A stretch of 64,000 nucleotides of DNA from Atractiella rhizophila (Eukaryota). The notes below the pieces were generated by a model. It was not told the DNA's origin. It did not search any database and saw nothing but the letters and a program-made list of their open reading frames with translations. The stretch spans positions 124,001 to 188,000 of the forward strand of contig MU271186.1 of assembly GCA_021432655.1 (NCBI GenBank), given 5' to 3'. Positions 1 to 58,245 of the stretch are shown one piece after another. The translations under genes and the position numbers were made by a program. Each line of letters starts with the position of its first letter. Within the stretch, counting starts at the first letter, position 1.

Positions 1-760
1 CCACACGACCCAAGAAATTTCATAACCAAACGGGATGAGATAGCTCACCTCGCCTGATGGAATTTGAGGGTGGGGAAATCTGGATGCCCAATTTACGCAT
101 GACATCCCTCCCGATCCCAGTCGTAGGATCATTCTCCTCCACACCTGCATTCCTCACTTCCAATCCTTCCAAATGTCTAGTTTTCACAGCTTCATTTGCT
201 TGCACCATCCCTGTTTAATTCCGTCCAAACGTGAAAATGGTCATCAGCGTCAAAGTCGCAACAATGGCGAGCTCAGCCGAAAGCTTACCGTTGAAGATTG
301 TTGAAACACTGTCGCAGAACTAATGTCGGTACTGTGCTCCCCTGAGGTTGGAGCAGCTGTGCAGGCGTCGAGTGGAGGGGCATGAGGGTTTGGTCGCTTT
401 ATAAGGCTTTGTCACTTCGCTTCAACTTCCGATTCACTGGCTCCGGCGAATTCGGCACAAACCAGGCGGTTTGAGGAAGGATCAGGAACGACTTTGAGCC
501 AGCAAACGGATCAGAATAGGTTGTATAGGGTCGTATTTTGCATATACACAGAGACATTACATGGGTGACGGCGAATCCAAGTCCTTTAACTAGTGTACAC
601 GAGCTTGAAGAGAAAAAGATATAAAGTATGACTGACGTCCAGAAACAAGGCTGGCTGAATTGTCCACTGAGAGAAATTTAAGGACAGATGGGGGTACCGA
701 CGACAAATCGTTGCTATAACCATTGAGCATCACACTGAATCATGAACTCGAATCTAAGAT

Positions 761-2562
761 CTAATAGCTCGGAGGCCGTGTCGGTCGTGCAGGCTCGTAA
801 GGATTTGGCCAGGTCCTAGTAGAAACATAGGATGAAGGAGTTCCTCCAACACCCAAAGTGGCCTGAGATCCTTGTCTCTCCTGATGGGCTTGAGATGGAT
901 CTCGAGAGGAAATATGTGAAGGAAGACCGGGAAGGGTGGCGTCGCGTCCATGGCCGTCCATCGAGGCTGGCGGCTCGCCAGGAGGAGCAGAATAATGGCT
1001 ATCTGCACTATAGACGGAAGAGCGAGTATCCTCTTGTCTCTCCTTATCCCTCATAGCTCCCCCTCCAACCAGTGCTGCTGATACACCGCCTGGTGGCGGT
1101 GGTGGCGCCACCGAAGACGGAATCGAAGGAGGAGTACCGGGATTACTAGACTTGGGGAGAGCCGCGATCTGCTCGTAGGGATTGGCGACGGGAATAGTGG
1201 GGGCTCGGGAAGGGGCTAGAGAGGGAGCTTGAGGAGGAGATCGAGTTCCAGGAGGCGGAGGACCATAAGGAGTGTAGTAGTTAGAACCAGGGGGTCCAGG
1301 AGGGGGAGCGTAAGCGCCAGCATAACCGTTAGGCATTCCCGGAACCTGTGGACGAGGCATGGGAGGGGGAGGGCCTTGCGCTTGACCGTCGTACATTGAC
1401 CTGAACGGTTCTCGAGAGCTGGCGGTGCTGCCTGACTGCTGTCTCCGTGGACTCGGTTGGGCAGCGTATGGATCATACGGCGCCTGATTCCCATATCCTC
1501 TCGATGGGCTCTGGTTGGGTCTTCCAGCATTCGGACCCCGACCGTATCCCATCCCGACACCCGACACCCTCTCCTCGTCATCCGACTCCCTCATCGCAGT
1601 CAGAGGGACCTGTTCGGCATTGTTCCCATACTCCGCAAAAGCAGGCAGGTCCTTCCCATTCTTACTCTTGCTCCTTCCGAAGCTGTTTCCGAAATTGGGG
1701 ACGTAACCCGTGTTGGCTCGAGCCTTTTCAGCCGCAATGGCGTCCTGTCGCATGTTTGAAGCGAAGGCGGGATCCATGCTTGGCTTCCACTTTTCGTGTT
1801 CGGGATTTCGGTTCGAACGTTGACGAATACAACATCTCCCGCACCCGAAGAAGCAACCGGAGAGGGAGAGGAGGATGGCGGCTGTGAGGGTGAGCCAGAT
1901 GGCGTTCCCAAGCTGCGCGTTGACCGTGGTGCTGTCTCCTGTGTCCGAACTATTGATTCGGGACTTGGCGATGGAGAAGGTGATGATGTCGAAGATGAAA
2001 GCTAGCCAGGCGAAGGACGCGGCGAAGGATGCGAAGCAGGTCGTGAAGCAGGTGCCGGAAAACTCCCTGATTAAAGAAAGCAATCCTAAAATGGACGCAA
2101 TTCCGCCGAACGCAGCGGCAACGGGATGAATCACCAAAGCGTACGTGAGACCCTTGATGAGAGCTTGGCGACAACGGATCAGACCGGGAAGGCAGCCAAA
2201 TCACAACTACTCACAATTAGGAATTCCACCTAATGCATCTTTTGCGAGTCCCCCTATATTCAGGAGTGAATCCGCATCTGTGCAAACAAATCGTCTCAAT
2301 CTCCAAAGTTTCTGCTTCGAGGTAAGAAGAACGCACCCAGATCATAACCGAGTTTAGCTTTTGAGCAAGATCCAGCGATGCAAAGTCCCCAAGTGCCTAG
2401 TGTAATGTCTCCTCCGGTACTGAACTGTTGAATCGTAACAGTCAAGTTCGCCTTTAAGAAAAAGACAGATTTGATGATTGGGACGGAGAGAGAAACGACG
2501 ACGAGAAGGGCCGTGCCAACAAGAACGACCAGCGTTCCCGGGAAATTTGGGGAAATCGCCAT
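761..2562 (-). CDS. palI: SUR7/PalI (Rim9) family membrane protein with long Pro-rich C-terminal tail; 3 exons
   Basis: Exon 1 MAISPNFPGTLVVLVGTALLVVVSLSVPIIKSVFFL...ITLGTWGLCIAGSCSKAKLGYDL carries the G-x-W-G-x-C...C motif. Later exons give LTYALVIHPVAAAF and AQLGNAIWLTLTAAILL followed by a Pro/Ser-rich tail (ORF 761..2137). GT-AG introns near 2339-2280 and 2213-2164. Confidence 0.85.
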
Positions 2563-3537
2563 GAATCGAGGAAGCGAGAATTGGTCGTGAACAGGGGAAC
2601 GTTAGCGCTGGTCAGTTCAGTGCACTATTACTCAGTGTTACCTGGCAGTAATGGGCAATGGGATAAGACTCACCTTGATGGTGGTACAGTCAAGAAGCAC
2701 TGCTTTTTGTGTTCTGTGGCAGGTGGTTGCTGGTTTCGGATGGTTTGATGCAAGAATCACTCACCCCTGGCCCGCGCGTAAATTCGGCCTGTCCGCCGGA
2801 CCAGCTGCGCAATTTGTTGCTTCCGTGTTTCAGGTACGTACGTTCGCCTTTGTTTATATCAGACAAAGACGGCAGCGTGATTAAGACAGGCGACCATCTC
2901 AAACTGCCATCTCAGGATCTGAGGTATCATTCAAGCTTTCGAAGGTGAGCCTATTTGATTTGATACTCACGATTTGTGATTCTGATTCATTGAGATTCGC
3001 AGTGTATTGTCCAGAACTCAATTCAATTCGACGACGTTGGTCTTTGGTCGACAGTGCTTTGCGGTTGCCGTCCGTTCATGACTGCTTAACGCAGTAAGGC
3101 TGGATTGAAGCACCATGGCCACGTCAAGGAGGGGAACAGCTCCGCGTTACTACTACTGCAATGGGTGCAAGGTTCTTCCACCTTTCTAACATCTCGTGGA
3201 CAAGCTCGTTGATGGGACAATCTTGTCCAGATCGAATTCGAGACCTCAATGGATTGGAATAGGCATTGCGTCAGCATTGAAGATAACAGGGAGCTGCAGG
3301 TAACGCTCTTTCTTCCTAATCTACGTGCTGATTATCAAAGGAATATAGGAAGGACTGGGCGCGCTCCCTGATGGGACTGTAAGCTTCCCTTTGTCCTTCA
3401 GTCTTTACCAATTTTGAGGTACTCTTTCTTGGTAGATCCCTTCGCTCATTTGCCCCCAAAAAATCGATTCTGTCGAATTTTGGGTGGAGCGTCAGCGTTC
3501 TATTCTATCCAGTTTGCTCCAGCTGAGTGCGGAGTGA

Positions 3538-4959
3538 ATGTTAGATGCTTATCAGACTCGCACCAACATCAGTGAAAGTTTGATCGACGTATACACCGGA
3601 GAAGTCGTCCAAACTGCAACAGGAGCCCGCCAACTCTTCTGCTTCTATTGTCAACGAAACTTTGGCGGAGCAATCGAGTTTTCTCGACATTTGAAGACCG
3701 TGCCACACGAAGTCGTCTCCGTACAGAGCTCTTTTTTCTTCATCACTTCTCCAATGACCATGAACCAATCTACAGGTTCGTCCATATGACAACGGCTTTA
3801 CCTGCCCAGAACGAATCCGCGAACTTCAAATCCAGCACGGGCTGTCAGTCTCACCTCTATTTCCTCATTTAAGTCAGCTGAACGAAGGAATAGGGACCCT
3901 GATCCTCCACGTCCTCGATCAGTCTCAGTGCCTCAAACCGCCAGCCGAAACGATGACCAGCAGAGCGCACCAAGCAATCCTCCTCGTCCACGAACGCCGT
4001 ACACCAGATCTGATCAAGGTCAAGCTCCATGCCCCAATCCTCCGCGTGCGCGAACCCCATTCGCTAGAGACGATGAAGACCCGAGCTCGCGACGTTCGCA
4101 CGCCGATCCTCCGCGTTCGCGGACGCCGTTCGCTCGAGATGATGAGGATGAAGGTCCACGAGTTGTTCCACGCCGTTCACGAACGCAGTACGCTCGGGAG
4201 AGGAGCAGGAGCAGGAGCAGAGGCAGAGTATCTTATGAGGCAGAAGAACGAATCAGGGGAATGCAGTCTCCTAATCCTGCAGAAGGACAGGGGAGAGCGT
4301 TTCCCACCCCTGGTGCAGAAGAGCGAGGCAGAACGTATCCAGTTCCTCGTGCAGGCGGCAGGACATATCCCGTTCCCCGTGCGGCAGAGGGTACAACGTA
4401 TCAAGTTCCTCCTCTTGCTGAAGAACGAGCCAGAACGGCTTCCGTTCCCCTTGCAGGAGGCAGAACATATACTGTCCCTCTTGCGGAAGAGCTTGGCAGA
4501 ACATATCCCATTCCTCCTCCAGAAGAGCTAAGGCGGCCATTCTATCCTGCCCGTGCATCGACCTCCTTTGAGGGAGAAGAGTGGAGGAGAGCGAATTCTC
4601 CTCCTCAAACGTCTTCTTCCTACACCACGCCCGGTAATCCACCGTTCCCTTCTGCACCGCAAGCGTCCGCTCCCTACACCACAATGGGAAATCCACCGTA
4701 CTCCTCTTTTCCACAGGCTTCTTCTTACACCACTATGGGGAATCCACCGTACTCCACTGCACCTCAAGCGTCCGCTTCCTACACCACAACGAGGAACTCA
4801 CCTCACCCCTCTGCGCCTCAAGCGTCCGCTCCCTACACCACAATGGGAAATCCACCGTACTCCTCTTTTCCACAAGCGTCTTTCCGCATCTGTGCCAACA
4901 AATCGTCTCAATCTCCAAAGCTTCTCCTTCAAGATAAGAAGAACGCACCAAGATCGTAA
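3538..4959 (+). pseudogene. Orphan zinc-finger / Pro-repeat / coiled-coil gene A, copy 1, truncated at the duplication junction
   Basis: Exons MLDAYQ...FCFYCQRNFGGAIEFSRHLKTVPHEVVS | VRPYDNGFTCPERIRELQIQHGL | DPDPPRPR... At 4883 the ORF runs into antisense PalI intron sequence and lacks the coiled-coil end present in the other copies. Confidence 0.6.
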
Positions 4960-5174
4960 CCGAGTTTGGCTTTTGAGCAAGATCCAGCGATGCAAAGTCC
5001 CCAAGTGCCTAGTGTAATGTCTCCTCCGGTACTGAACTGTTGAATCGTGACTGTCAAGTTCGCCTTTAGGAAAAAGACAGATTTGATGATTGGGACGGAG
5101 AGAGAGACGACGACGAGAAGGGCCGTGCCAACAAGAACGACCAGCGTTCCCGGGAAATTTGGGGAAATCGCCAT
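4883..5174 (-). pseudogene. 5' fragment (exon 1 plus intron 1) of the PalI-family gene
   Basis: ORF 4929..5174 encodes the same exon 1 peptide; downstream exons are absent past the junction at 4883. Confidence 0.85.
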
Positions 5175-6147
5175 GAATCGAGAAGCGAGAAATTGGTCGT
5201 GAACAGGTAACGTTAGGGCTGGTCAGTTCAGTGCACTGATACCCAGTGTTAGCTGGCAGTAGTGGGCAGTAGGGATAAAGGATAAGACTCACCTTGATGG
5301 TGGTACAGTCAAGAAGCACTGCTTTTTGTGTTCTGTGGCAGGGTGGTTGCTGGTTTCGGATGGTTTGATGCAAGAATCACTCACCCCTGCCCGCGCGTAA
5401 ATTCGGCCTGTCCGCCGGACCAGCTGCGTAATTTGTTGCTTCCGTGTTTCAGGTACGTACGTTCGCCTTTGTTGTCAGACAAAGACGGCAGCGTGATTAA
5501 GACAGGCGACCATCTCAAACTGCCATCCCAGGTTCAGGCATTATTCAAGCTTCGAAGGTGCGCCTACTTGATTGGATATCCACAATGTAATTCTGAGTTG
5601 TTGAGATTCGCAGTGGATCGTCGAGAACTCACTTCAGTTCGACAACGTTGGTCCTTGGTCGAAAGTGCTTTACGGTTGCCGTCCGTTCATGACTGGTTAA
5701 CGCAGTAAGGCTGGATTGAAGCACCATGGCCACGTCAAGGCGGGGAACCGCTCCACGTTACTACTACTGCAACGGGTGCAAGGTTCTTCCAGTTTCCTAA
5801 CCTCCCGTGGACAAGCTCGTTGATGGGACAATCTTGTCCAGATCGAATTCGAGACCTCAATGGATTGGAATAGGCATTGTGTCAGCATTGAAGATAACAG
5901 GGAGCTGCAGGTAACGCTCTTTCTTCCTAATCTACGTGCTGATTGTCAAGGGAATATAGGAAGGACTCGGCGCGCTCCCTGATGGAACTGTAAGCTTCCC
6001 TTTGTCCTTCAATCTTGACGAATATGAGGTGCTCTTTCTTGGTAGATCCCTTCGCTCATTTGCCCCCAAAAAATAGATTCTGTCGAATTTTGGGTGGAGC
6101 GTCAGCGTTCTATTCGGTCGAGTTTGCCGTAGCTGAGTGCGGAGTGA

Positions 6148-7887
6148 ATGTTAGATGCCTATCAGACTCGCACCAACATCAGTGAAAGTCTGATCGACGT
6201 ATACACCGGAGAAGTCGTCCAAACTGCAACAGGAGCCCGCCAACTCTTCTGCTTCTATTGTCAACGAAACTTTGGCGGAGCAATCGAGTTTTCTCGACAT
6301 TTGAAGACCGTGCCACACGAAGTCGTCTCTGTACAGAGCTCTTTTTTCTTCATCACTTATCCAATGACCATGAACCAATCTACAGGTTCGTCCATATGAC
6401 AACGGCTTTACCTGCCCAGAACGAATCCGCGAACTTCAAATCCAGCACGGGCTGTCAGTCTCACCTCGATTTCCTCATTTAAGTCAGCTGAACGAGGGAA
6501 TAGGGACCCTGATCCTCCTGCACGTCCTCGATCAGTACCAGCACCTCAAGCCGCCAGCCGAAATGATGACCAGCAGAGCGCACAAAGCAATCCTCCTCGT
6601 CCACGAACGCCATACACCAGATCCGATCAAGATCAGGCTCCACGCGCCAATCCTCCCCGTGCGCGAACCCCATTCGCTAGAGACGATGAAGACCCGAGCT
6701 CGCGACGTTCGCACGCCAATCCTCCGCGTTCGCGAACGCCGTTTGCTCGAGATGATGAAGATGAGGGCCCACGAGTTGTTCCACGTCGTTCACGGACGCC
6801 GTATGCTCGGGGAAGAAGCAGGAGCAGGAGCAGGAGCAGAGGCAGAGTATCTTATGAGGCGGAAGAACGGATCAGGGGAATGCAGTCTCCCAATCCTGCA
6901 GAAGGACAGGGGAGAGCGTTTCCCACCCCTGGTGCAGAAGAGCGAGGTAGAACGTATCCAGTTCCTCGTGCTGGAGGCAGAACCTATCCCGTTCCCCGTG
7001 CGGCAGAGGGTACAACGTATCAAGTTCCTCCTCTTGCTGAAGAACGAGCCAGAACGGCTTCCGTTCCTCTTGCAGGAGGCAGAACATATACTGTTCCTCT
7101 TGCGGAAGAGCTTGGCAGAACATATCCCATCCCTCCTCCAGAAGAGCTAAGGAGGCCATTCTATCCTGCCCGTGCATCGACCTCCTTTGAGGGTGAAGAG
7201 TGGAGGAGAGCGAATTCTCCTCCTCAATCGTCCTCTTCCTACACCACGCCCGGTAATCCACCGTTCCCTTCTGCACCGCAAGCGTCCGCTCCCTACACCA
7301 CAATAGGAAATCCACCGTACTCCTCTTTTCCACAGGCTTCTTCTTACACCACAATGGGGAATCCACCGTACTCCACTGCACCTCCAGGGTCCGCTTCCTA
7401 CGCCACAATGGGAAATCCACCGTACTCCTCTTTTCCACAAGCGTCTTCGTACGCCATGAGGGGGAATCCACCGTACTCCTCTGCACCTCAGGCTACCGCT
7501 GCCTACACCACTACTCCACCTCATTGGCAAGATACGACAATGCCTGAGTTCAGGGGTGGTTTGGGCGACGATGAAGACCCACGTCTTCACGCGCTCAGGG
7601 GGCACATGATTCAGATAACGAACAGTCTATTGAAACTTGAAGGAGACCTGATCCATTTGACTGAACAGGTGCAAAAATTCCAACAAGAGAGAAGAGAGAA
7701 GGAGAGCATTCGGGATGACCTGTTGAGAAAGCTTCAAAATGCTGGTATGAGAAACGGGTCCGTCTTTCTGTCGATTTGTGCAAGATGTCTCGGTTGTTTG
7801 TTGTCTTCTTTGCATGGTTTCTTTCAAACGTTCCATGACCCCTGTCCTAGTATGAGACAAAGCCATTTTGCTCTCAGTCCGTCATAA
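6148..7887 (+). CDS. Orphan zinc-finger / Pro-repeat / coiled-coil gene A, copy 2 (3' end uncertain)
   Basis: Same spliced structure as copy 1. Contains GRTYPVP and YTTMGNPPYSSFPQASS repeats and the heptad-like LHALRGHMIQITNSLLKLEGDLIHLTEQVQKFQQERREKE. Lacks 4 nt (gtgt) that give the stop after AGMRV in copy 3. Confidence 0.6.
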
Positions 7888-8693
7888 TTATTTGTGCTGA
7901 TCACAAAAATTTGAGCATTAAACTCTTAACTTGAACAGAAGCCGGAGACCCTACAGATGGTACTCAATTCAACTCTCGTAACTGGGTCCAGACTCTGCTG
8001 CCTTCACATGCACTGCTTACATTTAACTTTACTTCGCGTTCAGACAGAAGTGACAGCAATAAGCCAAATCTGGTGGAAACATCCGATACACAATCAATAA
8101 AAGGGCTAGCCTGTATCTGTTCAGCCCATTTTCCCAAGGCTTCCCTACATCAAAGCAGATTGAAGGCCGCAATTTTCAGTAACAAATACACATCAGGCTG
8201 CCATATTCTCCACTCTTCGCCTTTTTGGGCTGATGCTCAAGGTTATGGTAAAGCTTATCAAGGGTCTATAAAGTTCGGGAAGGGAAACTGCCAGATCTGG
8301 GTGTCAGGGCACAAGTGCTTATCGTACCTTTTACTGATTTTCATGAAAGTTCGAGGGACAGAGCGCAGGACATAGCGCGATCACAGACAGTACAAAGGGA
8401 AGCACGGGCTCCTATTGCACCATTTACCACCCTCTCAAGCCACTCAAGCTTTTTTGTCCCTAGCCCTTGTGCTGTAACATCTCTTCAGATATTAGATGGT
8501 GCGTTGTTGTAGATAAGAAGTGCAGACTCTGATGTGTTTTCATAATGGGTACAGCGCCATTGTCGAGCTGTCGTCCTGCACTTCGTTTAGAGACTGCCTG
8601 TATAATCTACCATCGTCGGTTCTCTCATCCCCTTCCTCTTAATGATATTTACGAAGTCGCTTCTAGCACACAGGCCACCTATACATCATAACT

Positions 8694-9765
8694 ATGGTGC
8701 AACCACCTGCTATATGGAGGCTTTCGGAATGCGATCCAAGGGACGATGAATCGAGCCCTTACTCGACGATCACCTCGGTATTGCATGCACTGCGATACTC
8801 AGGTAGCAGTCTGATCTTTCAAGTGAAAACCAACTAATGATAAGGCAGTTTACCGCTACTGCTGTCTATGAGAGGCACAAACTCGACATTCCTGATGAGA
8901 ACAAGAGAGTCCGTTGTTCAATATCGTTATTTGGTAAAATGTCGCTGAGGTTTTCATTCCAGACACAACTCGGGGGAGCGACAAAAACATGTCCAGAACG
9001 TCTCGCGTCAACAGGTACGTTCTCACCGTACACTTCTCAAACACCTCACCTCATGATTGGTCACGCCAAGGTTACTGGATGGGGGCACGTCTTTGGGTAT
9101 AATTTATATTCCCTATTTCTAATGATTGGAATGGGGTAGTCGCCGAAGAAACCTACAGACATCAAGATGATCGAGTGTTACTTGGGCAAGAGCATTCCCA
9201 CCTCTGTCTGGTGCCACAACCCCACTCGCTGCGCGTCAGTCACTGTCCTTCGCTTCCACTGCAGAATAAATCTGACTGACTTGAATAGCTTTGAATGTCA
9301 TTGGTGTCCTGGTAAACGTGTTTAAATTATTGGATACTTGATTCTGATAAAGCTATCTAGGACAATGGTTCAATCCGAAGGATTTCAGCTCTCCCACTCA
9401 TTTAGTTGACCTAGTACAAATGTTAAGCAACGATCCAATCAGGGTTGCAAGATTTCGGGTATGATGTGCCTTGTGAGCATAAAATGAATCAATGAGCCTG
9501 ACACAGGAACTGCTCAATGACAAAGACGTCAAACACATCTGCAAAATGTTGTATGATAAAACGGTGAAGATTTTAGATGCGTTCGTGTTCTTCCCTCGTG
9601 TTGTTTTATGACGACTGAGGAGGCGACAGAGAGCTGGTGAGAGGAAGAGTGAGGGTGCAGAGGGAAGTTGAAGAAGCGCGAGCAAGAGCTGCTGCTGCTG
9701 CAAATGCCACACAGACACCAGCAGAGACACGAGCAGCAGCACCTGTACCAACACCTGCTCCATTG
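8694..9765 (+). pseudogene. Orphan gene B, partial copy with a 2-bp deletion, ending at the scaffold gap
   Basis: Near-identical to 14567-15639, but gaatcgagccc replaces gaatcgaaagccc (frameshift in exon 1). Confidence 0.55.
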
Positions 9766-9790
9766 NNNNNNNNNNNNNNNNNNNNNNNNN
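9766..9790. other. Assembly gap (25 N)
   Basis: Run of n characters. Confidence 1.
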
Positions 9791-12695
9791 CGTAAGGGGA
9801 CTAAGCAAGAAGGCGGAGTATTCTATGAGACGGAGACGAGGACGAGGACGAGGAGAGGGCTCGCATGACGCAAGCACTTGCCGCACCTTGTTGAGCACCT
9901 GGGAGTAGGAGTAGTAGAGCTCGCTTGCCGCAAGCGCTTGCGCCTCCTAGCCGCACGCTTGCAGCGCTCGAGCCCAGAAGTAGCAGAGATCGCTTACCCC
10001 AAGCGCGTGCGCCTCCTAACCCCGTACCTCGAACTGGAACTAGTCTAGACCACATGCCGCAAGCACCTGCTCCTCCTAACGAACCACGCGAGACGACCAG
10101 TAGCAAAGCCGACCGCCAAACTCCGTGACTCTGACTAGCTCCTGCACCTCCTAGTCCCAGGGATAAGGAAGCAAGTCGACTGAATTTACTCCTTTATCTC
10201 CACTCTGACTGTCGGGCACGACCTAAACTTCAAGCGCCTAAGCAAGACCCGTCCATTTCGGCAACAGTATACCTGCTTGGACATCTAACCAAGTACCAGT
10301 AACCTATTCACTACTTCTTTTTTCTCGAGACATGTCTCTGCTGAAGCACACCGTGCCAGAAGTTTACAGCTCTTTTGAGCTAACGAGGCGGTTTCAAAGC
10401 AACTGTTATCTTCGTCTTCTCAACCGCCCGAGGACAACGTCAAACCTGCTGAAGAGGCCACATATGCAGCTAGTTTGAAAGTGACTACAACCACGCTCAG
10501 ACTATTCGTAGATTGTAAGTGAGGCGTGAGTCGATGTCGTTTGACCTGCTTATCTTGCGACTGCGAGGTGGGTTTTAAGCTGTCTTAGATAAAAAACCCC
10601 CGTTTACTCGCTTCCCCTAGATGGTTCTTTCTCGTGGAGTTTAAGCACTTCTAACTTCCTGTTTCCCTTCGAATGTCAAGGTAGTCCCTCGCGCGGGTCA
10701 GGAAGGATATAAGGGAACTGTTAGTCGTGCATCTAATCCTTCTTTCTCGCAATGGACGTCGAGGGACAATAGAAGTTACGACTGCGTTACGGATAAGGTT
10801 AGGTAACTCCAGAGCTTAAGCTAGACCTGTTCTAACAGGGTAGTTGCTCGAACAGGTGCTCTCCAATCTTTTGACCTTCTTGGAACGTGGGTAACGTCAT
10901 CATCATTGCGCCTCGCCAAGGGGAGGAACTGCACCGGTACCACGAAGTTAGGTCGGAATGACGCAATTCGTCAGTACTTGCCTGCCGTTGGCGTTTCGTG
11001 AAAGCTGGTTCCTGGTTGCAACAGCTTGACTTCACTCAAGAGCTGCTAGGTGACGCTTAGAGTTGTTGAGTCTTAGTGTTTAGCACCCTATAGGTTTAGT
11101 TCATCCGAGTGGAAGCTTTCGAACTTATTATGGAGTTGGACTCTACCGTCAAACTCTACCAGCGGACAGAATTAGTGCGACGGCAGAAACAGACTATTTG
11201 TTTCCGCTTGCATGCATGGACTTTGTGCCTTCGTTGTTTAACGCGTCGACCAGGCCGCCTGTCCGGCTTAAATGCGCGCCCGGTCCCCACTCACTAAGAA
11301 CGTAGTTTGGTAGGCTTTGGTCGTTGGTGGGACGGTGTCTTGTGTTTTTCGTCACGAAGAACTGACATGGTGGTAGTTCCACTCAGAATAGGAAATAGGG
11401 ATGACGGGTGATGACGGTCGATTGTGACCCATAGTCACGTGACTTGACTGGTCGGGATTGCAAGTGGACAAGTGTTGGTTAAAGAGCGAAGAGCTAAGTA
11501 CCGCTAAAGGGGTTTAAAGGGCCCTTGCGACCAGCAAGAACAACCGTGCCGGGAAGAGCAGCAGCAAGAGAGAGAGGCAGGGTTAGTAGTTTAGACAGAA
11601 AAGGATTTCCGCTTGAACTGTCAGTGCTAAGTTGTCAAGTCATGGCCTCCTCTGTAATGTGATCCGTGAACCCCTGAAACGTAGCGACCTAGAACGAGTT
11701 TTCGATTTTGAGCCAATGCTAGAACCACGCAAGAAGAATGGAACTTCCTCTTTGAAACCTCTAACTCTGCTAAACAAACGTGTCTACGCCTAAGTGAGGA
11801 CTTATATCCCCCTGAGCGTTTTCTACGTAATCCACCTTAAGGATTAACACTCATCAACACTAAACCGACGGAAGGGCCAGACTAGGCAACAGCGGTTCGA
11901 GAGTAGTTCCCAGAGTGCATGCGAAACCACTAAGTAGGGCAACGGCGACGCAAGCCGCCTTAACGCAGGTAAAATCCTAACGAAAGAAATTAGTCCCTCA
12001 AAAGGCCGTGGACGAAGTGCTGGACGAAGCGTAGGAAGCGGCGCAGGAAGCGGACCGATCGAAAGTAGAAGCTGTAGTAGTGGAAGAGGTAGCGGTTCAG
12101 GGCTTAGTTATCAAGCCTGTGTCCTCTGTCGTGGTGCCAGTTGCGCGTCGAACCCTTGCGGTAGACCGAGTGGGAGTGTCGGCGGTAGGAGGAGAGGGAG
12201 AGGCCAACGAAAAAGCCCACGCCCTCTACAACATAAGCAGTTGCAAGCTTGGCTTTAGGGCTTGTGCTTTTCACCTTCGGTTCGTACCTAGGGCGGAAGC
12301 GAAGTTTGTACGCTGTCCTGCGGTAACGCCGACTTTTCCGAGCTCGGTTGTGCCCAATGCAGGGGGTTAAAGCCTTTGTCGAAGCCTTCCTCGTTCTCAT
12401 TCTTACCCTTCCTGGACGGACGAAAACGCCTCATACCCTTGTTACGGCTTTGTCCAGGGAGACTGACGCTACTCCCTCAGCCTACTGCTCCTCTCCCACA
12501 GCCCACAGCCCTACCCTATGCCAGCCCCAGGCTTACGACCTTCTGGGTTGGTCTCGGGTGGCTCTCCTATACCTTAGTCCGCGGCATACTAGGTATGCGA
12601 CGGGTTGGCTCAGGTGCCTCTGTCGTCAGTCCTTCGTGGCGGTCGAGAGCTCTTGGCAAGTCCAGTTACATGCTGCCAGTTCGCGTTCCGGGAGG
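9791..12695. repeat. Mirror (reversed, non-complemented) copy of 1368-4264
   Basis: 9791 cgtaaggggactaagcaagaag read backwards is gaagaacgaatcaggggaatgc (ending 4264). Reading backwards from 12695 gives ggagggccttgcgcttgaccgtcgtacattgacc (starting 1368). The match held at the internal positions checked. Confidence 0.97.
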
Positions 12696-13624
12696 AGTCT
12701 CCTAATCCTGCAGAAGGACAGGGGAGAGCGTTTCCCACCCCTGGTGCAGAAGAGCGAGGCAGAACGTATCCAGTTCCTCGTGCAGGCGGCAGGACATATC
12801 CCGTTCCCCGTGCGGCAGAGGGTACAACGTATCAAGTTCCTCCTCTTGCTGAAGAACGAGCCAGAACAGCTTCCGTTCCCCTTGCAGGAGGCAGAACATA
12901 CACTGTTCCTCTTGCGGAAGAGCTTGGCAGAACATATCCCATCCCTCCTCCAGAAGAGCTAAGGAGGCCATTCTATCCAACCCGTGCATCGACCCCCTTT
13001 GAGGGAGAAGAGTGGAGGAGAGCGAATTCTCCTCCTCAAACGCCCTCTTCCTACACCACGCCCGGAAATCCACCGTTCTCTTCTGCACCGCAAGCGTCCG
13101 CTCCCTACACCACAATGGGAAATCCACCGTACTCCTCTTTTCCACAGGCTTCTTCTTACACCACAATGGGGAATCCACCGTACTCCACTGCACCTCAAGC
13201 GTCCGCTTCCTACACCACAACGAGGAACTCACCTCACCCCTCTGCGCCTCAAGCGTCCGCTCCCTACACTACAATGGGAAATCCACCGAACTCCTCTTTT
13301 CCACAAGCGTCTTCTTACGCCACAACGGGGAATCCATCGTACTCCTCTGCACCCCAAGCCACCGCTTCCTACACCACGACTCCGCCTCATTGGCAAGATA
13401 CGACAATGCCTGATTTCAGGGCTGGTTTGAGCGACGATGAAGACCCACGTCTTCACGCGCTCAGGGGGCACATGATTCAGATAACGAACAGTCTATTGAA
13501 ACTTGAAGGAGACCTGATCCATTTGACTGAACAGGTGCAAAAATTCCAACAAGAGAGAAGAGAGAAGGAGAGCATTCGGGATGACCTGTTGAGAAAGCTT
13601 CAAAATGCTGGTATGAGAGTGTAA
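12696..13624 (+). CDS. Orphan gene A, copy 3, 3' part (5' exons lie inside the mirrored block)
   Basis: SPNPAEGQGRAFPTP...LLRKLQNAGMRV*. Un-reversing 9791-12695 restores the upstream exons in frame. Confidence 0.65.
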
Positions 13625-15639
13625 CGGGTGCGTCTTTCTGTCGATTTGTGCAAGATGTCTCGGCTGTTTGTTGTCTTCTTTGCATGGTTTCTTTCAAACG
13701 TTCTATGACCCCTGTCCTAGTATGAGACAAAGCCATTTTGCTCTCAGTCTGTCATAATTATTTGTGCTGATCACAAAATTTGAGCATTAAACTCTTAACG
13801 TGAACACAAGCCGGAGACCTACAGATGGTACTCAATTCAACTCTCGTAACTGGGTCCAGACTCTGCTGCCTTCACATGCATGCTTACAGTAACTTTACTT
13901 CGCGTTCAGACAGAAGTGACAGCAATAAGCCAAATTTGGTGGAAACATCCGATACACAATCGAAGAAAGGGCTAGCCGTATCGATATTCTGTTCAGCCCA
14001 CTTTTCCCAAGGCTTCCCTACATCAAAGCAGATTGAGGGCCGCAATTTTCAGCAACAAATACATATCAGGCTGCCATATTCTTCGCTCTTCGCCTTTTTG
14101 GGCTGATGCTCAAGGTTATGGTAAAGCTTACCAAGGGTCGATAAAGTTCGGGAAGGGAAACTGCCAGATCTGGGTGTCAGGGCACAAGTGCTTATCGTAC
14201 CTTTCACTGATTTTCATGAAAGTTCGAGGGACAGAGCGCAGGACATAGCGCGATCACAGACAGTACAAAGGGAAGCACGGGCTCCTATTGCACCATTTAC
14301 CACCCTCTCAAGCCACTCAAGCTTTTTTGTCCCTAGCCCTTGTGCTGTAACATCTCTTCAGATATTAGATGGTGCGTTGTTGTAGATAAGAAGTGCAGAC
14401 TCTGATGTGTTTTCATAATGGGTACAGCGCCATTGTCGAGCTGTCGTCCTGCACTTCGTTTAGAGACTGCCTGTATAATCTACCATCGTCGGTTCTCTCA
14501 TCCCCTTCCTCTTAATGATATTTACGAAGTCGCTTCTAGCACACAGGCCACCTATACATCATAACTATGGTGCAACCACCTGCTATATGGAGGCTTTCGG
14601 AATGCGATCCAAGGGACGATGAATCGAAAGCCCTTACTCGACGATCACCTCGGTATTGCATGCACTGCGATACTCAGGTAGCACTCTGATCTTTCAAGTG
14701 ATAACCAACTAATGATAAGGCAGTTTACCGCTACTGCTGTCTATGAGAGGCACAAACTCGACATTCCTGATGAGAACAAGAGAGTCCGTTGCTCAATATC
14801 GTTATTTGGTAAAATGTCGCTGAGGTTTTCGTTCCAGACACAACTCGGGGGAGCAACAAAAACATGTCCAGAACGTCTTGCGTCAACAGGTACGTTCTCA
14901 CCGTACACTTCTCAAACACCTCACCTCATGATTGGTCACGCCAAGGTTACTGGATGGGGGCACGTCTTTGGGTATAATTTATATTCCCTATTTCTAATCA
15001 TTGGAATGGGGTACACGCCGAAGAAACCTACAGACATCAAGATGATCGAGTGTTACTTGGGCATGAGCATTCCCACCTCTGTCTGGTGCCACAACTCCAC
15101 TCGTTGCGCGTCAGTCGCTGTCCTTCGCTTCCACTGCAGAATAAACCTGACTGACTTGAATAGCTTTGAATGTCATTGGTGTCCTGGTAAACGTGTTTGA
15201 ATTATTGGACACTTGATTCTGATAAAGCTATCTAGGACAATGGTTCAATCCGAAGGATTTCAGCTCTCCCACTCATTTGGTTGACCTAGTACAAATGTTA
15301 AGCAACGATCCAATCAGGGTTGCAAGATTTCGGGTATGATGTGCCTTGTGAGCATAAAATGAATCATTGACCTGACACAGGAACTGCTCAATGACAAAGA
15401 CGTCAAACACATCTGCAAAAAGTTGTATGATAAAACGGTGAAGATTTTAGATGCGTTCGTGTTCTTCCCTCGTGTTGTTTTATGGCGACTGACGAGGCGA
15501 CAGAGAGCTGGTCAGAGGAAGAGCGAGGGTGCAGAGGGAAGCCGAAGAAGCGCGAGCAAGAGCTGCTGCTGCTGCAAATGCCACACAGACACCAGCAGAG
15601 ACACGAGCAGCAGCACCTGTACCAACACCTGCTCCATTG
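12696..15639. repeat. Direct-orientation copy of the gene A 3' half and the downstream region (matches 4265-4882 and 6884-9765)
   Basis: agtctcctaatcctgcagaagg at 12696 equals 4265. The downstream ORFs recur (8315/14188, 8837/14712) up to acacctgctccattg. Confidence 0.95.
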
Positions 15640-16314
15640 TCAGGCTCAGCTCCAGCGGCGGCTCGTGGGCGACCCCCAACCGTCCGCCCTCTAGGAAGAT
15701 ATCAACCTCCTCCTGCTCACATTTACAACCAACCGTCCCAGGGTCGCCGTTTCAACTACTCTCCTCCTCCGCCCCCACGACCTCATGTCTTTGACCAGCC
15801 TAACCCCGCTCGTCAATTCAACTACACGCCTCCGCCGCCACCTCGTCCCCATGTTTTCAGCCAGACGTACCCCTCACGCCAGTTCAACTACACTCCTCCC
15901 CCACCGCCTCGGCTTCCCCGTCGTCACACTCCATATCAACCACGTTCCGCTTCTCCCACTGCTGACCGCGATCGTCGCCCACACTCGTCCCGACCCACAA
16001 ATCATCCTGGGAGTCACCGGGATCGTAGTCCTCGCCCGTATGCAGGCATTCCTCGACCTCCGACATCCAGTCGAAATCACATCCCTCAAACGCAAACAGG
16101 GCCTATACCTCCACCGCCTTCTCGGACGCACCGACCAGCGGGGAGTGGGAACAGCGTGGATTGTCTGCAAGGGATACACAATACTCTCTTCAACATCCGC
16201 ATGAACAATCTAGGTCGCCATGCCTCAATCCGAGATCTCGAGCGAGCCAATAATGAAAAGAGAGATCGCATTGCAACTATGAGAGAAATGATACGGGGAC
16301 TACGACGTTCGTAA
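14567..16314 (+). CDS. Orphan zinc-finger / Pro-repeat / coiled-coil gene B (middle exons unresolved)
   Basis: Exons MVQPPAIW...RYCMHCDTQ | FTATAVYERHKLDIPDENKR | TQLGGATKTCPERLAST. The last exon has three RQFNYTPPPPPRPHVF-like repeats and IRDLERANNEKRDRIATMREMIRGLRRS*. Confidence 0.6.
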
Positions 16315-16662
16315 ATGAAACTGCATGGATTTGTAAATACTGTAGTCTGTACATAGGACATCATCACGATACACGAAAGTCCAGCTGTTCCTTGCCGAAG
16401 AAACAATCTATTATTGATGTCTAAGCGTTTGTCTCAGCTGCAGTCTTAAAGGCAGTCCGTACCGCAGCCCACCTTTGGATTTGTTTTGGCAACTCTCAGT
16501 TCGTTCTGAAATATGCCTCGAATTCTAACAAACAGATCGACTTCCTAAGGATGAAGAGATTAACTCAAGGTCAAACGAGCAATAAATCAGTCGATGTTTA
16601 AGGAGCAAAAGGGCGTTCGAGGCCTCTCCCCTCAGAGTAGTCCACTTGCACCCTCGTAAACC

Positions 16663-17761
16663 ATGTCGCACAACGCTGAATGTCCTGACTGTGGTAACTC
16701 CTTTTCTAGCTCTGCTTCCTTCCAGCAGCATGAGGTGGACGTTTCCAATGAGAGTATAAATTTCCGTGTAATGCTACTTGCCTTCATTGGTTTGGAGTTG
16801 ACGTTGGAGTAGATGATTTGTAAATTAGTGTTTCCGTCGCATCGCGTTTGCCCACGAAAGAAGGACCTGGTGAAGTGGCTTATCGCACATGTAAAGGATT
16901 TTGTTTCTTTTTACATGATTGAGTTCAGATTCATTTTGAAACCAGACCGAGACGAGCAACAATATCATCACGAAGGAGGAACGATTGTCAAGCGCAATTC
17001 ATAGCGTACAGCTTCCAATTTTCGCAGACAGGGACGATGCTACCAAGGGGTAGGTAACTTGCTACTTAGATCAATACTAGTAGCAGGACTAACGACAAGA
17101 TGTTCCAGCATCAAGTGCCGGGATTGCCAACAGACATTTCAGCTAAGTTTACCGTATTGTAATCATGGTACGAAGCCTTTATCCTCCACTGCAACAAGGG
17201 CTAAGTTCATCCCAGCCAAGAAGATTCCTGATGATCAGGTAAACATTCAAGACAAATACGGAATCGTCTGATTAGACATGGCAGCGTTATCTATTTGACC
17301 GGAACGTGACGAGAATCTGCCCCCTGACATTACAACGGGTAACAGAATCTGCCGCTTACGCAGGTCACGCTCCACGGAGGGCGAATACGATGAACGACTT
17401 CCCTCCTCGCCCTGCTAATAACCAACCTAATAACAACTTCCCTCCTCGCCCTCCTAACAACCAACCTAATAACAACTTCCCTCCTCGCCCTCCTAATAAC
17501 CAACCTAATAACAACATGTGGAACGATACGCCTCGCGAGGCACCTGATAATCAGGCTGAGAACATGCGAAACTTCTACATGGCCACCCTTCCTGACCATT
17601 TGAGAAGAGAGATCGATGAAGTCATCAAGGAAGCTTACGAGCTTATCAGAGACAAGGCAGAACTGGACAGACTCGCCTCACAGGAACATCAAAACCTGCA
17701 GGCGATGGATCAGGAAATTGAAAATCTCGAGCGTATCATCTCAGATATGCAGGGTAGATAA
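16663..17761 (+). CDS. Orphan zinc-finger / Pro-Asn-repeat / coiled-coil gene C (splice sites tentative)
   Basis: ATG at 16663 gives MSHNAECPDCGNSFSSSASFQQHE, followed by a probable exon FPSHRVCPRK. The last exon has three FPPRPPNNQPNNN-like repeats and the coiled coil LQAMDQEIENLERIISDMQGR*. Confidence 0.5.
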
Positions 17762-22255: not shown

Positions 22256-22297
22256 TTTGGAGTGTTGCTGAAGCTCTGGCTAATAATGCCCGCTTCC

Positions 22298-24628
22298 AAG
22301 AGAAAGGTCGTCGTTTTGTGTGCAGAACTGACGGGCCTTCTTGCCAAACTTCGTATTGACGAAACAAAAAATTGACGACCAACGTACAACGTAGAAGCTT
22401 CAAAGCAGCCTCTCCTCAGCTGGTTCTAGGGCGAGCCCGTCTACTTTGCACGGGAACGAGACATGATTCAAAAAATGACAAACTCAAGCTGGAATGGACG
22501 TGACTGCGAGGGCATCGTTTTATGATAAAGAGAATAGTAGGAAATGTCGAGGATGGATTGGATTCAATTTGTGAAAGTGAGTTGGTTGGAGCGCTGTAGA
22601 CCTTTTTCAACAAACTTCTTTCAACATGCATACATGGAAATGTCATGCATGCTGTTAAACTTCATAGTCATGCGAACAAAATTAAAAGAAGAAACATGTA
22701 CTTTTGAAAGAGTTTAGCTCGTAAGGGCATTAATTGGCCAATGTTCAAGGTGACAGACAAACCATAGATCTCTAAGTATTGGCCATATCCTCGGACTGCG
22801 TCCAGGTAGCGAGCTGTTTAATATTTTGGACACTTTTCTTCAGTGCTAAGAAAGGAGGTTATGACAGGCTACAGTAACACAGACCGGTGCCTGCTGTCGA
22901 ACACGTGCAAAGCGAGTCGTTTGTCTGGTTTTCAATTTCAAGGATGCGTGGCAGTCTGGTTCTTCAGAATAAGGGCCATGGCGTGGAGTATTTCGCCCTC
23001 CTCACTGGAACGCCGGGTCCATAACTGCGCAACTCGAAGGGAGATAGCTTGTAGATGAGGAGCCACTCAACTTTGTGCATCACGATGTCACACCTTCGAT
23101 TCATTACTGCCTTACAGAGTATGTCACCTCCTCGGATGCAATACGAGTACCCAATGTTGCTTCAGTTGGTCTTTTGAGCCATGGCATGACTGGCGCGAGT
23201 TTTGTATGGATGTTTCATCACTCACCACCAACAAGAAATGGTGCCTGCAATAACTGGTGACTTTAAGGGACGATCCTGATATAACATGATGGTCCCTGCT
23301 GTCCCACAAAATAGTGCAGGACCATGGTGACGAACAGCAAGACCAATGGTGGACATTGAAATTGACGCGTCAGTCAGCTTGAGCAAGGCACCATACCGCG
23401 TCGCCGATCGGTCAGCTGTTTTCTTCCATCACCTCGGTTGGTCGTGAAGCTTTGAAGAGAAAGGTCGTCGTTTTTGTGTGCCGAACTTGACGGCCTTCCT
23501 GCCAAACTTGTTGACGAAAACGAAATTGACAACCAACTTCGAAGCTTCGAAGCAGACTCTCCTCAGCCATCCTTTCTCACCAGGTTCTAGGGCAAGCTCG
23601 TCTACGCCGCCTATTTTGCACGGAAACAAAACGTGATTCGAAAAATGACGAACTCAAGTTGGAATGGACGTGACTACTACGGTATAGGTGTATGATAAAG
23701 AGAATAGTAGGAAATGTCGAGGATGGATTGGATTCAATTTGTGAAAGTGAGTCGGTTGGACCGCTGTAGACCTTTTTTGAACAAACACCTTTCAATAAGC
23801 ATACAAGTAAGTGACATGCACGCTCTTAAATTCATACTCATGTGAACAAACTTCAAAGAAGAAAACATGTGCCTGACTTGAGCATTCTAAACCGTTTAGC
23901 TCGAATTGGTCAATGTTCAACGTGACGGACAAGCCATAGATGTCTAAGTATTGGCCGTGTCCACGGAATGCTTCCTGGTGGCGAGCGGTTCAAATATTTT
24001 GGCCTCCTTTCTTCAGTGCATAAGCCTTGTCAGTGTTTCTCTCTCTACATTAACACAGACCGGTGCCTGCTGTTGAACTCTTGCAAAGCGAGGCGTTTGT
24101 CTGGTTTTCAATTTCAAGGATGTGTGGCAGTCTGCTTCTGCTTCTTCATAATAAGTCGCCTTGGCGAGAAGTATAACGCCATCCTCACTGGAACGCCGGG
24201 TCCATAACTGCGCAGCTCGAAGGGAGATATCGTGCTTGTAGAAGAGGAACCACTTACATTGGTGCGATTCATTACACGCCTTGCAGAGTATGCCACCTTG
24301 TGGGCAGATGCACGTCGTTCAGATACGGATAAGCAACGTTGCTTCAGCTGGTCTTTTGAGTTATGTGGATGCTTCATCACTCGCTAACGAGACAGAGTGA
24401 GTGCAATAGCGGTGACTTGAAAGGACGTTTCTAATATAACCTGAGGGTCCCTGCTGTCCCACAATCTAGTGCAAGAGCACCTCTTCAAATTATGACGACG
24501 AACAGCAAGACTAATGGTGGACATTGGAGCTGACGCGTCAGTCAGCTTGAGCAAGGCACCATACCGCGTCGCCGATCGGTCAGCTGTTTTCTTCCATCCA
24601 CCTCGGTTGGTCGTGAAGCTTTGAAGAG
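22298..24628. repeat. Diverged tandem duplication of ~1.16 kb in the TMEM115/catalase divergent intergenic region
   Basis: aagagaaaggtcgtcgtttt begins both units (~22298, ~23456) and ggttggtcgtgaagctttgaagag ends both (~23459, ~24628). Confidence 0.9.
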
Positions 24629-38347: not shown

Positions 38348-38763
38348 TGTTGGGGCTGACACTATGTGCGGTCGCCGACAGGCGATGCGTCTGTAGTGGA
38401 GATAAACCTAAGAGCATGATATGACATGAAGACTAACCTGTAGTGGAGATAAACCTAAGAGAATACTCTAAGGTCACCTCCACTACTCTCTGATCTATAT
38501 ATACAAGTGGAATAACACTGCCACAAAGCGTAGAGGAGAGCAGATGAAACATGTAAGAGAACTAAAAGGGGAAGTGACAGTGGGATTACGCGGAGTTAAT
38601 AAGAGGAGGATAGGCACAATTGGGCTAAGTGGTGATGTAGGTGCAAATGGGCGATGGGAGACGTAGAGTGGCGACGGGCGCCGATTCGCAGGGAACGCAA
38701 ATGGGCGAAAGGAGACGCAATCCGGCGAACGGGCACCGATTTGCGTAAGATGCAAACCTGACA
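38348..38763 (+). mobile_element. Solo LTR 1 (416 bp); strand is relative to LTR 2
   Basis: TGTTGGGG...CCTGACA termini with 5-bp TSD AGTAT on both sides. Internal direct repeat ctgtagtggagataaacctaagag occurs twice. Confidence 0.88.
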
Positions 38764-39181
38764 AGTATGTCCCTTTCTCCCACTTTCTCCTTTCATATCC
38801 ACTCATCCACAATGCCTGAGCCAGCTACCCAACGTGCATCACCACACACAACAAAAGGCTGCAGACCAGCTACACTGGATGACTATGTCATTGAATCTGG
38901 TACCAATATTCTTCATTCGATTGAACGACCAACTTCCCCGACCCCTCGTTTCCATGCAACTCCTGGGCCAACTAGTTCACAACGACTTATTCCTCCGCAT
39001 CAGCAGCCTGATCTGCAACTGATTCAACTTTCTTCTTCAGCGGAGCAGTCAAATGAAGGGTCCGAGTATAGTGACGAGAACTGTCAGAAGAGCCGCCCTG
39101 CAAAGAGGAAGGGGTCCAGTTATCTTGACATGGATGGAGAGAAGGATGAACGGAATGAAGATGAAGGTAGTGAGGAGATGG

Positions 39182-39669
39182 TGTCAGGCTTGCCCCTACG
39201 CATTACCGAAATGCACCATCCAAGGTCACGTGACCCACCTTACCGTGTCATGAGATCACGTACCTACCCATCGCCGCTCTGCACATGTCTGCGCTGTTCA
39301 CCGCTTTTCTATTTCTCACACGAATCGCCACTCAGCAAACCTTATACATTTCGCCAGTCTGCACCGTCTCCATTTTCGCCTTATTGTCCTTTCTCACTAG
39401 TACTACCCAGTATATCTTATTTCCGAGTATTCCCTTTATTACTTTCCTGATCTAACTATCTTACACATTTCAAGCAACGTATGTTACAGTTTATGGCAGT
39501 GCCTTTACTTATGTATATATACATCGAGGTAGTGGTGGTGACCTCAGAGTATTCTCTTAGGTTTACCTCCACTACAGGTTAGTCTTCTCATGCCATACTA
39601 TTCACTTAGGTTTACCTCCACTACAAACACATTGCCCATCGGCGACCGCACATAGTGTTTGCCCTAACA
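39182..39669 (-). mobile_element. Solo LTR 2 (488 bp), same family as LTR 1, opposite orientation
   Basis: TGTCAGG...CCCTAACA termini with 5-bp TSD GATGG on both sides. The reverse complement aligns with LTR 1. Removing it rejoins transposase sequence SEEM-DTEDGERLDSDVEITR. Confidence 0.9.
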
Positions 39670-41742: not shown

Positions 41743-44092
41743 AGTCAGAGTATAATGTTTTAACCAGAGGGTTTTGTTTGAAACAGGTATGTCTTCTGCT
41801 TGACACCTTTATATATTGCTAATGTGTCCCATATGCACAGGCACTTCATAATTTGTCTATAAATTCATTGATAACTATGGACGGTATGCAATGAAAGAGT
41901 CTGAGTGGAAGGAAGTAAAAGTCGTTGCTACTGGCCTAAAGGTGGGTCTTACATTTATCCTGAACTTGTGCTTTCTCATCATCAACAACATGCTTATGAT
42001 CAGCCCTTCAAGGAGACAACTCTCCTCCTGGAAAAAGAAGATGCATGTCTGTCCGAAGTCCTCCCTACATTCGAACGCTTGCGGCGCATACAGGTCAAGC
42101 TCAAAAATGATCCAACAATGGCAGCGTGGCATCTGGCAGCCGAAGCATCCATCAAGAAGCTCGACAAATACTACAATATTATGAAAGACAAGTGGTGCTA
42201 CCAACTTGCTACAGGTTCGTCTGATCAACTTGGCCTCTTAGCATGCCTCAAATGCAATCTGATGCGTTTAAAATGTAGTTTTGTCATAGCTATGGATCCT
42301 CATTATGGGTTGGCTTTCTTTGAAGAAGTTTATGGTCAAGAGTTCAAAGATTTGGTAAAGGGGAAGGTTAAGATGGAGTACTACCGTCGGGCGAAGACTG
42401 CCGGCAGCAGGGAAGACATGAGTGAAGAAGAGGATCAGAGAGCGGGAAGGAGCTTAAGGGCATGAGTTCAGACGAAAATGGAGAGGAGTATGGTGTTCTC
42501 GTTGATCTCCCATTGCGTGAAGACCTTGAGGATAGCCTCCATGAAATTGACCGGTTCTCTGCTATCAAGCTCAAAAAGGACCGTGACCCTCTCAAATGGT
42601 GGAAGGTTAGATGTCTTCTATTTTCTTTATTCTAGTTACTTAATTGATGCTTTGTTTAGCGACATGAGGATTCATATCCCATTCTACGGCTCATTGCAAG
42701 AGATCTTCTTGCAATACCAGCCTCAACAGCTGGTATTGAGCGACTTTTCTCATGGGCAAAGTTTATCAATACGAACCAACGAGGCTCAATGTCAGCGGAA
42801 ACTCTTTCAGAGACCATGACAACGAAGGCATGGTTGATGCAAGGAGTCAAGAAACCGCAGATATGGTGACTCCATTTTTTTCTGTTCCATATGCCATATA
42901 CACCGTATAATGTACCTTCCGTACCAGTAAACATTTTGGAAATTAAATTAACTTCATTTCACTTCCATATCCGTATCGTTTGAAAAGAAGCATGTACGGC
43001 CAGGATTGGTACTGCAATACCCATATACTCTACGGGTGGGAGGGCTGATTCATATGGGCTGCCTTGGACCAATCAAGACAGCGAGATCTGTGAGTTTCGC
43101 AGCTGGAATGCTTCACTTGCTCACATGTCATAATGGGCCGGAACGGAATGAACTTGAACTTCCTCTTTCTCTGATAGTTGGATGCATAATCCGACTGGAC
43201 AAGTGGTCAAAGCTTGCTGTTCTCAAGCGACATGTTCTTCTGAACCGTTGGCAGAGGCGGAGATGAAAGGGATGACCAAACTATCAGATCGCCCCTTATC
43301 AGGCGTTTCGAGACTTCCATGGCGCGATACGGTGACAGAACAGGTCCTTCGGTGGGGTAGATGACTCTGGAGACGAAATTGACTGTAACGATGTAAAGTA
43401 ACCGTACTGACATATTGAGCATCACGAAGGAACAAAAATTGATCTGAATGCTTCTTCTCCTTCTTCCTCACTCCTCCCCATTCTGCCTCCTTTATTAACG
43501 CCGGCCCTCCTTTCGCACCTCCTGCTTCCTTTCTCCAGATCCTCCGAGCGAACCTTTCGTCCTTTCGCGGATTACAACGAAAATGCAAGAGGCTCCACTT
43601 AATTCGATAGTTGCCTTTTCTTTTGTCGTGTCGCCCGGCGCTGTTAACATCTCAGACGTAGTCTTATTTATGATGGGGATGAAACACGAACCTCTCGCTT
43701 TACCTTGCCCTTTGCATCGTTAACCTCGAGTTGGAAGCGACATAGTTTGATAAGGCTTTCCTGTCCTCGGTGACATTGACACTTTCCCGAAACAAGATGT
43801 CTCCTGTTCTCAATGGTCAGGCTCGAGCTAAATACAGGGAATGGAAGAAAACCTGCTTCGCTTTGATGGGACGCACGAAAGGATCCCTGGCGAAAATGGG
43901 CACGTTCGTGGGATCGTCCGTTGTGAACTGTTCACCAAAAAATCGGAAAGAAGGATTTTGACAGTTTCCTTTGAGGTGCGATTAATTTGTTATCAAAATC
44001 TGGAATAATGAGGGCATACCTAGGTGCAAGAGTTGTCCTTTCAACCACTCTGCACAGTTCATCAGATATAAGGCTTTCATTCAAAAAAAAAT

Positions 44093-57435: not shown

Positions 57436-58245
57436 GTGTCTGCTACACCTCAGGTCAAAGCTTCCGGTTGGCGAACAAAAGGGAATACGGGCCTCTCATC
57501 CTCGGCCGTTCAATCACAAAGAGCTGTTCTCCTAGCCCCAGTCCAACGATACAAACGCATGCGAGTCGCCCATTCAGTCTACCCAAACTCGTCTGTCAAA
57601 GTTATGAAATGGGTCAAGGTCTCTGCTGACGAAGAGGAAGAGGAAGACATGGCACTGGAAGAAGCAGCCGAGGAGGAGCTGAAGAAGGCTGTTGAGGCCG
57701 CAATACCTCCACAACCTGGCTCAGAGACGCCACGTCATGAAGATGATGGAGGAACGCCAGCTGTGGAGGATGGGATGACGCCGAGCGGGCGACATGCAAT
57801 ATCGAAGGAGGACACGCCAGCGGTATCCGGCGTGTCAACACCATTGAGATCTAATCCCACCTCAAAAGGTCTCACTGGTACAGCTACCGAAAACGATTCT
57901 CCTGATCAAAGCGGATACGGAACTCCAAACCCTTACATTACCGCAAAGAAGCTACGCGGAGAGCACGTCTCAAAGCAGGGTTCGAGCTTGAGGATTGGAT
58001 TCAAATTCGATAATAGCCCACAGGAGGAAAAGGATTTTGAACAAGATGAAGGGATGGTTGAAGGAGAGGTCGAGGATCAGGGAATTATCGTTCAAGAGGG
58101 AGAGGAAATGGTAGAGGGGGATATGGAAGGCGTCGGCGAGATTCAATTTGAAGAGGGGGACAAACAAGTGCTGACCGACGACGGAGACCGCAAGTCTGAT
58201 AATCAGGACGAGGAGATGAATAGTGCAGAAGAGGAGAATGCTTGA
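57436..58245 (+). CDS. Acidic protein with a BCL7/Rtt102-like N-terminal motif (true start uncertain)
   Basis: 269-aa ORF. PVQRYKRMRV...SSVKVMKWVKV followed by an acidic disordered tail. Confidence 0.5.
   Translation: MSATPQVKASGWRTKGNTGLSSSAVQSQRAVLLAPVQRYKRMRVAHSVYPNSSVKVMKWVKVSADEEEEEDMALEEAAEEELKKAVEAAIPPQPGSETPRHEDDGGTPAVEDGMTPSGRHAISKEDTPAVSGVSTPLRSNPTSKGLTGTATENDSPDQSGYGTPNPYITAKKLRGEHVSKQGSSLRIGFKFDNSPQEEKDFEQDEGMVEGEVEDQGIIVQEGEEMVEGDMEGVGEIQFEEGDKQVLTDDGDRKSDNQDEEMNSAEEENA

Follow-up and report, generated by a model that had tools for sequence, protein, structure and literature searches.

A 64,000-nucleotide stretch of the Atractiella rhizophila assembly (GCA_021432655.1, contig MU271186.1, positions 124,001 to 188,000; hereafter the window) contains a 2.9-kb block that repeats neighbouring gene sequence when it is read from right to left on the same strand. 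Is this kilobase mirror a feature of the fungal genome, or was it written into the record by software? The extent of the block, its direction of writing, the genes and alleles that it touches, public sequencing runs and other gap edges of the assembly were examined in turn.

Extent and symmetry of the block

The window holds a single run of N, 25 bases at 9766-9790, and the block (9791..12695; neither feature is assigned a strand) begins at the very next base, as had been claimed in an earlier note on this DNA. Upon reversal, all 2905 bases of 9791-12695 aligned with 1368-4264, giving 2835 matches, 53 mismatches and 19 gap openings (score 5402). The last 2001 bases of the reversed block also aligned with 4883-6883, giving 1937 matches and 53 mismatches. 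Against the same targets, the three remaining orientations (as written, complemented and reverse-complemented) reached scores of only 25-34. Exact 20-mers matching in reverse only connected 1368-4264, 4897-6869 and 9791-12695 of the window, and none matched as the complement only. The mirror arms lie 5.5 kb apart and, as written, the block is unique in the assembly, matching only itself.

Reversal of a wider stretch (9601-12900) produced a match no longer than that for 9791-12695, indicating that the block ends exactly at 9791 and 12695. When the block is flipped in place, its end meets 12696 without the gain or loss of a single base, as judged from the equivalent positions 4264/4265 and 6883/6884, in agreement with the earlier note. 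This right junction (12695..12696, plus strand) falls within the last exon of a gene referred to here as gene A and is seamless once the block is flipped. The block is genomic sequence that was reversed and not complemented, and its true content is the 2905 bases upstream of 12696.

Direction of writing

The direction of each segment was scored using Markov models trained on both strands of 17001-64000, with the score defined as that of the sequence as written minus that of the reversed sequence. An order-4 model gave -118 bits for the block, favouring the reversed reading, and positive scores for all seven other segments of 1-17000 and for 16 of 16 held-out 2905-base tiles. With an order-5 model, one normal segment (4265-4882) also fell slightly below zero (-4.6). 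The ratio of TA to AT dinucleotides was 1.92 in the block vs 0.50 in 1368-4264, and ranged from 0.47 to 0.76 across 51 of 51 control tiles.

Seven introns were correctly placed via the joints in one of the public sequencing runs (X4). All seven had GT..AG ends once the block was flipped, and none did in the block as written, on either strand. This outcome is implied by the sequence match and is hence not independent of it. An eighth intron, outside the seven counted, exhibited GT..AG on a second version of the locus described below. None of the four tested ORFs in or overlapping the block had a Pfam match at E<=0.01, in contrast to the normal copy of a SUR7/PalI-family gene that lies partly inside the block. 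The Markov score, the TA/AT ratio, the flipped introns and this Pfam contrast together identified 9791-12695 as the reversed arm.

Three versions of the locus

The earlier note had described the block as a reversed reproduction of 1368-4264. The mirror relationship stands, with its 2835 matches, but the block is not a copy of that segment: reversed, it belongs to a third version of the locus. Version 1 (1368..4882, plus strand) is 97.3% identical to the flipped block plus 12696-13313 and breaks off at 4882. Version 2 (4883..9765, plus strand) restarts at the equivalent of 2271 and is 95.3% identical to 10695-15639 with the block flipped. Version 3 continues in normal orientation to the right of the block (12696..15639, plus strand) and is 94.8% identical to 6884-9765. 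After the junction, each version has letters of its own.

Of the substitution columns, 57 grouped the reversed block with 4883-6883 and 56 grouped it with 2271-4264. Substitutions private to the flipped block were confined to four columns, of which three lie together in a single doubtful stretch of the alignment, and to one further three-way column. So low a number, where the other versions have 57 and 56, is what would be expected of mixed reads reduced to a majority consensus, or of a recombinant. Single-base indels were found in the flipped block only at five places between the equivalents of 2271 and 4264, and three more distinguished it from version 1 alone in 1368-2270; several of these indels lie in homopolymer runs. 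A comparison of 4265-4882 with 12696-13313 (618 bases) yielded 15 substitutions and no indels. The three versions may represent alleles or a genuine duplication, or may consist of fill sequence.

Version 1 passes into version 2 at 4882/4883 by a blunt jump, without N, from the equivalent of 13313 back to that of 2271, which may reflect genuine tandem duplication or a further fault in the assembly. The repeat region of version 2 exactly matched a contig of public run X1 (record 5). At 7752, 8753 and 5205, version 2 was without a few letters that are present in runs X1, X2 and X4, and owing to the loss at 7752 the end of gene A is longer in version 2 than in version 3.

Other repeats were observed elsewhere in the window. 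A tandem duplication of ~1.64 kb (96%), free of N, occupies 58094-61381, and an older one of ~1.2 kb (77%) occupies 22292-24628. A 1.3-kb stretch at 38348-39669, bounded by inverted repeats of ~180 bases at 83.5%, is possibly a small DNA transposon.

Genes and gene models touching the block

The SUR7/PalI-family gene of version 1 lies on the minus strand at 761..2562, and its 5' part also occurs in the mirrored block. Segment 764-2134 matched PF06687 above the curated cut-off (E 5.9e-09; 36.3 bits vs 29.6). The segment 2341-2562 alone had no Pfam match, and the gene start at 2562 was read by eye. In the flipped block the frame is broken by single-base indels, with stops in all three frames. 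This gene is a passenger, the mirror not being explained by membership of PF06687.

Gene A was modelled on version 2 (5726..7887, plus strand) as a spliced frame of 612 codons with six introns after the ATG, the intron places being taken from the joints of run X4. Its ATG corresponds to 3115 in version 1 and to about 10939 as mirrored. The product is a low-complexity Pro/Arg/Ser protein of no known family, with no Pfam match for the last exon. Two Cys-x2-Cys...His motifs picked out by eye suggest putative zinc fingers. The expectation in the earlier note that flipping the block would restore gene A was borne out for the junction and not for an intact gene: one exon has 56 bases instead of 55, and the frame from the ATG is consequently shifted in the flipped version.

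The relatives of gene A that were found were P0001 and P0002 only, both hypothetical proteins of A. rhizophila. P0002 is a chimeric gene model in public databases (NCBI, nr) with a footprint at 11642..13621 on the plus strand. Its peptide mapped exactly to the window as written at 12035-12307, 12363-12560 and 12617-13621, and its first four residues fit the ATG at 11642. Residues 1-187 of the 496 derive from mirrored DNA and residues 188-496 from the real last exon. P0001 was apparently spliced across two versions of gene A (3786-3967 and 6265-7884), with residues 1-44 from version 1 and the remainder from version 2.

Public sequencing runs

Part of the locus is present in four public runs (X1-X4), all of them sets of contigs from at most three samples; X1 and X2 represent one sample, and X3 covers a small share only (0.09). 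Record 3 of X1 covers 5806-6115 with four other letters and no gaps, and record 10 of X2 is alike. These letters, at 5880, 5968, 6017 and 6024, are the four that separate the flipped block from version 2. Version 1 differed from the same record at eight places plus one indel, and the extra base of the flipped block at the equivalent of 6047 was absent from it. Contigs also crossed 6883/6884, the equivalent of the flipped junction, in X1 (record 4), X2 (record 11, whose shorter side has 32 letters) and X4 (record 21), although these contigs are not specific to version 3. No loose ends at 6883/6884 were seen among those listed in the runs. These contigs, possibly from another strain, carry the letters of the block in normal orientation, and the flipped junction with them.

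Among 29 listed other letters in 4883-6883 (112 more lie beyond these), 21 fitted the flipped block, 27 fitted version 1 and one fitted the flipped block only, and contigs may merge variants. As the letter at 5747 occurs in no version of the window, the runs may represent another strain. Past 9765, all four runs continued with sequence of the type found at 15640 and did not enter the block, whether as written or flipped.

As written, the block had zero depth in 10 of 10 bins (10013-12712) in all four runs, and up to the gap depth was recorded in 19 of 19 bins in X1, X2 and X4 and in five in X3. The zero depth was not counted as proof because contig sets have holes, which prove nothing, and because a bin of normal sequence (12713-12982) was empty too, its contigs having been placed on version 2.

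Joints at 8614-8667, 8908-8963 and 9016-9139 were present in X1 and X2, guessed to be DNA, and also in the spliced run X4, two of them with GT..AG. None of these X1/X2 joints fell at the introns of gene A. They may stem from RNA in X1 and X2, or a second transcript may exist in an intron-less copy.

Reversed blocks at other gap edges

The earlier note had proposed a scan of the assembly for other reversed blocks beside gaps. Such a scan was performed on 823,530 of the 51,470,471 assembly bases (1.6%), drawn non-randomly from six large scaffolds and containing 11 gaps, or 22 edges. A flank was classed as reversed-like at >=25 bits. Seven of the 22 gap edges, the present one included, had such a flank (6/21 without it), and the remaining 15 had no mirrored flank. 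Control anchors away from gaps exceeded the threshold in 0 of 1800 cases, with a maximum of 19.4 bits; the Fisher value for edges vs controls was 1e-14, which is nominal as the control anchors overlap. An unanchored scan returned six segments of at least 25 bits, every one touching a gap. Reversed blocks are thus tied to gap edges in the sampled assembly. Mirrored sequence amounted to 17,687 of the 823,530 sampled bases (2.15%), a share that applies to large scaffolds.

All three 25-N gaps had a mirrored flank, one of them on both sides, and the remaining affected gaps were of 209, 256 and 3285 N. Two blocks on scaffold C1, 66583-67420 (L026) and 67446-74419 (L027), and one on C40, 41642-43639 (L054), lie at gap edges with a mirror partner nearby. 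Within them, C1 66627-67415 mirrors 78475-79262 at 98.5%, and C40 41732-43000 mirrors 43665-44933, the first 1269 bases right of the gap, at 99.0%. The other three blocks, likewise at gap edges, were recognised by word statistics alone: C40 92388-93874 (L059), right of the 256-N gap; C20 1945-5175 (L040), which lacks a second copy as written and, in the sampled sequence, a mirror partner; and C120 1-259 (L070), in which the block has only 254 bases of extreme composition.

One segment off any gap, C7 28001-29000 (-15 bits), was considered as a mirror and rejected, as 1027 bases recur at 100% as written on C329. These bases, C7 27900-28926 (L006 3900-4926), are identical to C329 50647-51673 and represent either a recent duplicate or redundant assembly.

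Origin of the mirror

The reversed word statistics, the recurrence at gap edges, the public contigs in normal orientation and the lack of a Pfam match for 4/4 ORFs led us to conclude that the block is almost certainly an assembly artefact, most likely a software orientation error during gap filling. The same lines of evidence support the view taken in the earlier note, that of a string reversal in scaffolding or gap filling. The scaffold would have had a gap left of 12696, and long reads extending leftwards from the adjoining contig would have been combined by a gap filler into a local consensus. This consensus would have been trimmed at the correct base and then written with half of a reverse-complement operation, either by reversing without complementing or by complementing without reversing a contig from the opposite strand, which would equally yield the identical string. 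The 25 N would have been left behind because the two sides could not be merged. We infer gap filling as the step at fault, and the private single-base indels of the block point to long reads as its source. A fault striking only minus-strand local contigs would leave some extensions correct, and would be consistent with the 15 of 22 normal edges.

The responsible program was, on a modest balance of probability, PBJelly-like; PBJelly writes exactly 25 N at overfilled gaps. As described, PBJelly treats runs of >=25 N as gaps, lengthens the flanks so that they reach into a gap, and marks a gap as overfilled when its two extensions do not merge (PMC3504050); overfilling is stated to duplicate sequence in a second account (PMC9635638). 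The locus shares with such overfilled gaps the new sequence on a contig end entering an unclosed gap, the duplication of sequence across the gap, a lower-accuracy fill and 25 N as the program's smallest gap. It differs in the reversed-only output, which the available parts of these accounts do not describe for the program (PMC3504050, PMC9635638). No report of blocks reversed without complementing, by any program, was found in the literature searched, which comprised main texts and few subscription journals.

The same artefact could have arisen at another step, with a scaffolding, merging or submission script reversing whole small contigs without complementing them. Blocks adjoining gaps of 25, 209, 256 and 3285 N, to the left or the right and in one case on both sides, would fit such a script, as would block sizes of 0.25-7 kb, which suit small contigs. 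Against this, the far end of the block meets its neighbour without N and without overlap, the flipped C40 block and the beginning of the following contig share an overlap of 1269 bases in the manner of an overrunning flank extension, and the block has private single-base indels vs none in the 618 bases of 4265-4882 against 12696-13313. Within the artefact explanation, we regard the script as an unlikely source that nevertheless deserves weight, and gap filling as the preferred one.

Biological origins fare far worse. An unknown process copying a template backwards could have made a real kilobase mirror duplication in the cell; the string does stand in the record, and the sequencing evidence consists of contigs. 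However, all blocks found at 25 bits or above touch an assembly gap, the alleles of the block itself occur in normal orientation in public contigs, the mirror would need to have taken the place of precisely the sequence being mirrored, and a templated copy of this kind requires a polymerase moving in reverse. We consider this process wildly improbable, and attach no greater credence to the variant that the fungus bears kilobase mirror copies of its own genes and that gaps form there as mirrors confuse assemblers.

Known classes of repeat differ from the block. Inverted duplications share a second copy in opposite order but yield the reverse complement, the orientation without a match here. Genomic mirror repeats and H-DNA motifs share same-strand mirror symmetry; the long mirrors of the complete human genome derive from simple repeats and are simple tandem repeats (PMC12214015), whereas the present mirror is 2.9 kb of complex, gene-bearing sequence running from an N gap. 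The block has ~50% G+C and contains parts of two genes, with neither the simple tandem repeats nor the homopurine-homopyrimidine arms of biological mirrors and H-motifs. Simple repeats are their own mirrors, and a chance or low-complexity origin might be sought in them; with 2835 matched bases of complex two-gene sequence, and scores of 25-34 for the control orientations vs 5402, such an origin is excluded.

Implications

The mirror block is not a biological feature of A. rhizophila; it is a data error. Real genes in DNA written backwards escape six-frame searches and false ones arise in their place, and through this block a partly imaginary protein, P0002, has already entered public databases. 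A reversed-vs-written Markov score anchored at gap edges detects such blocks without a second copy and is applicable to any assembly.
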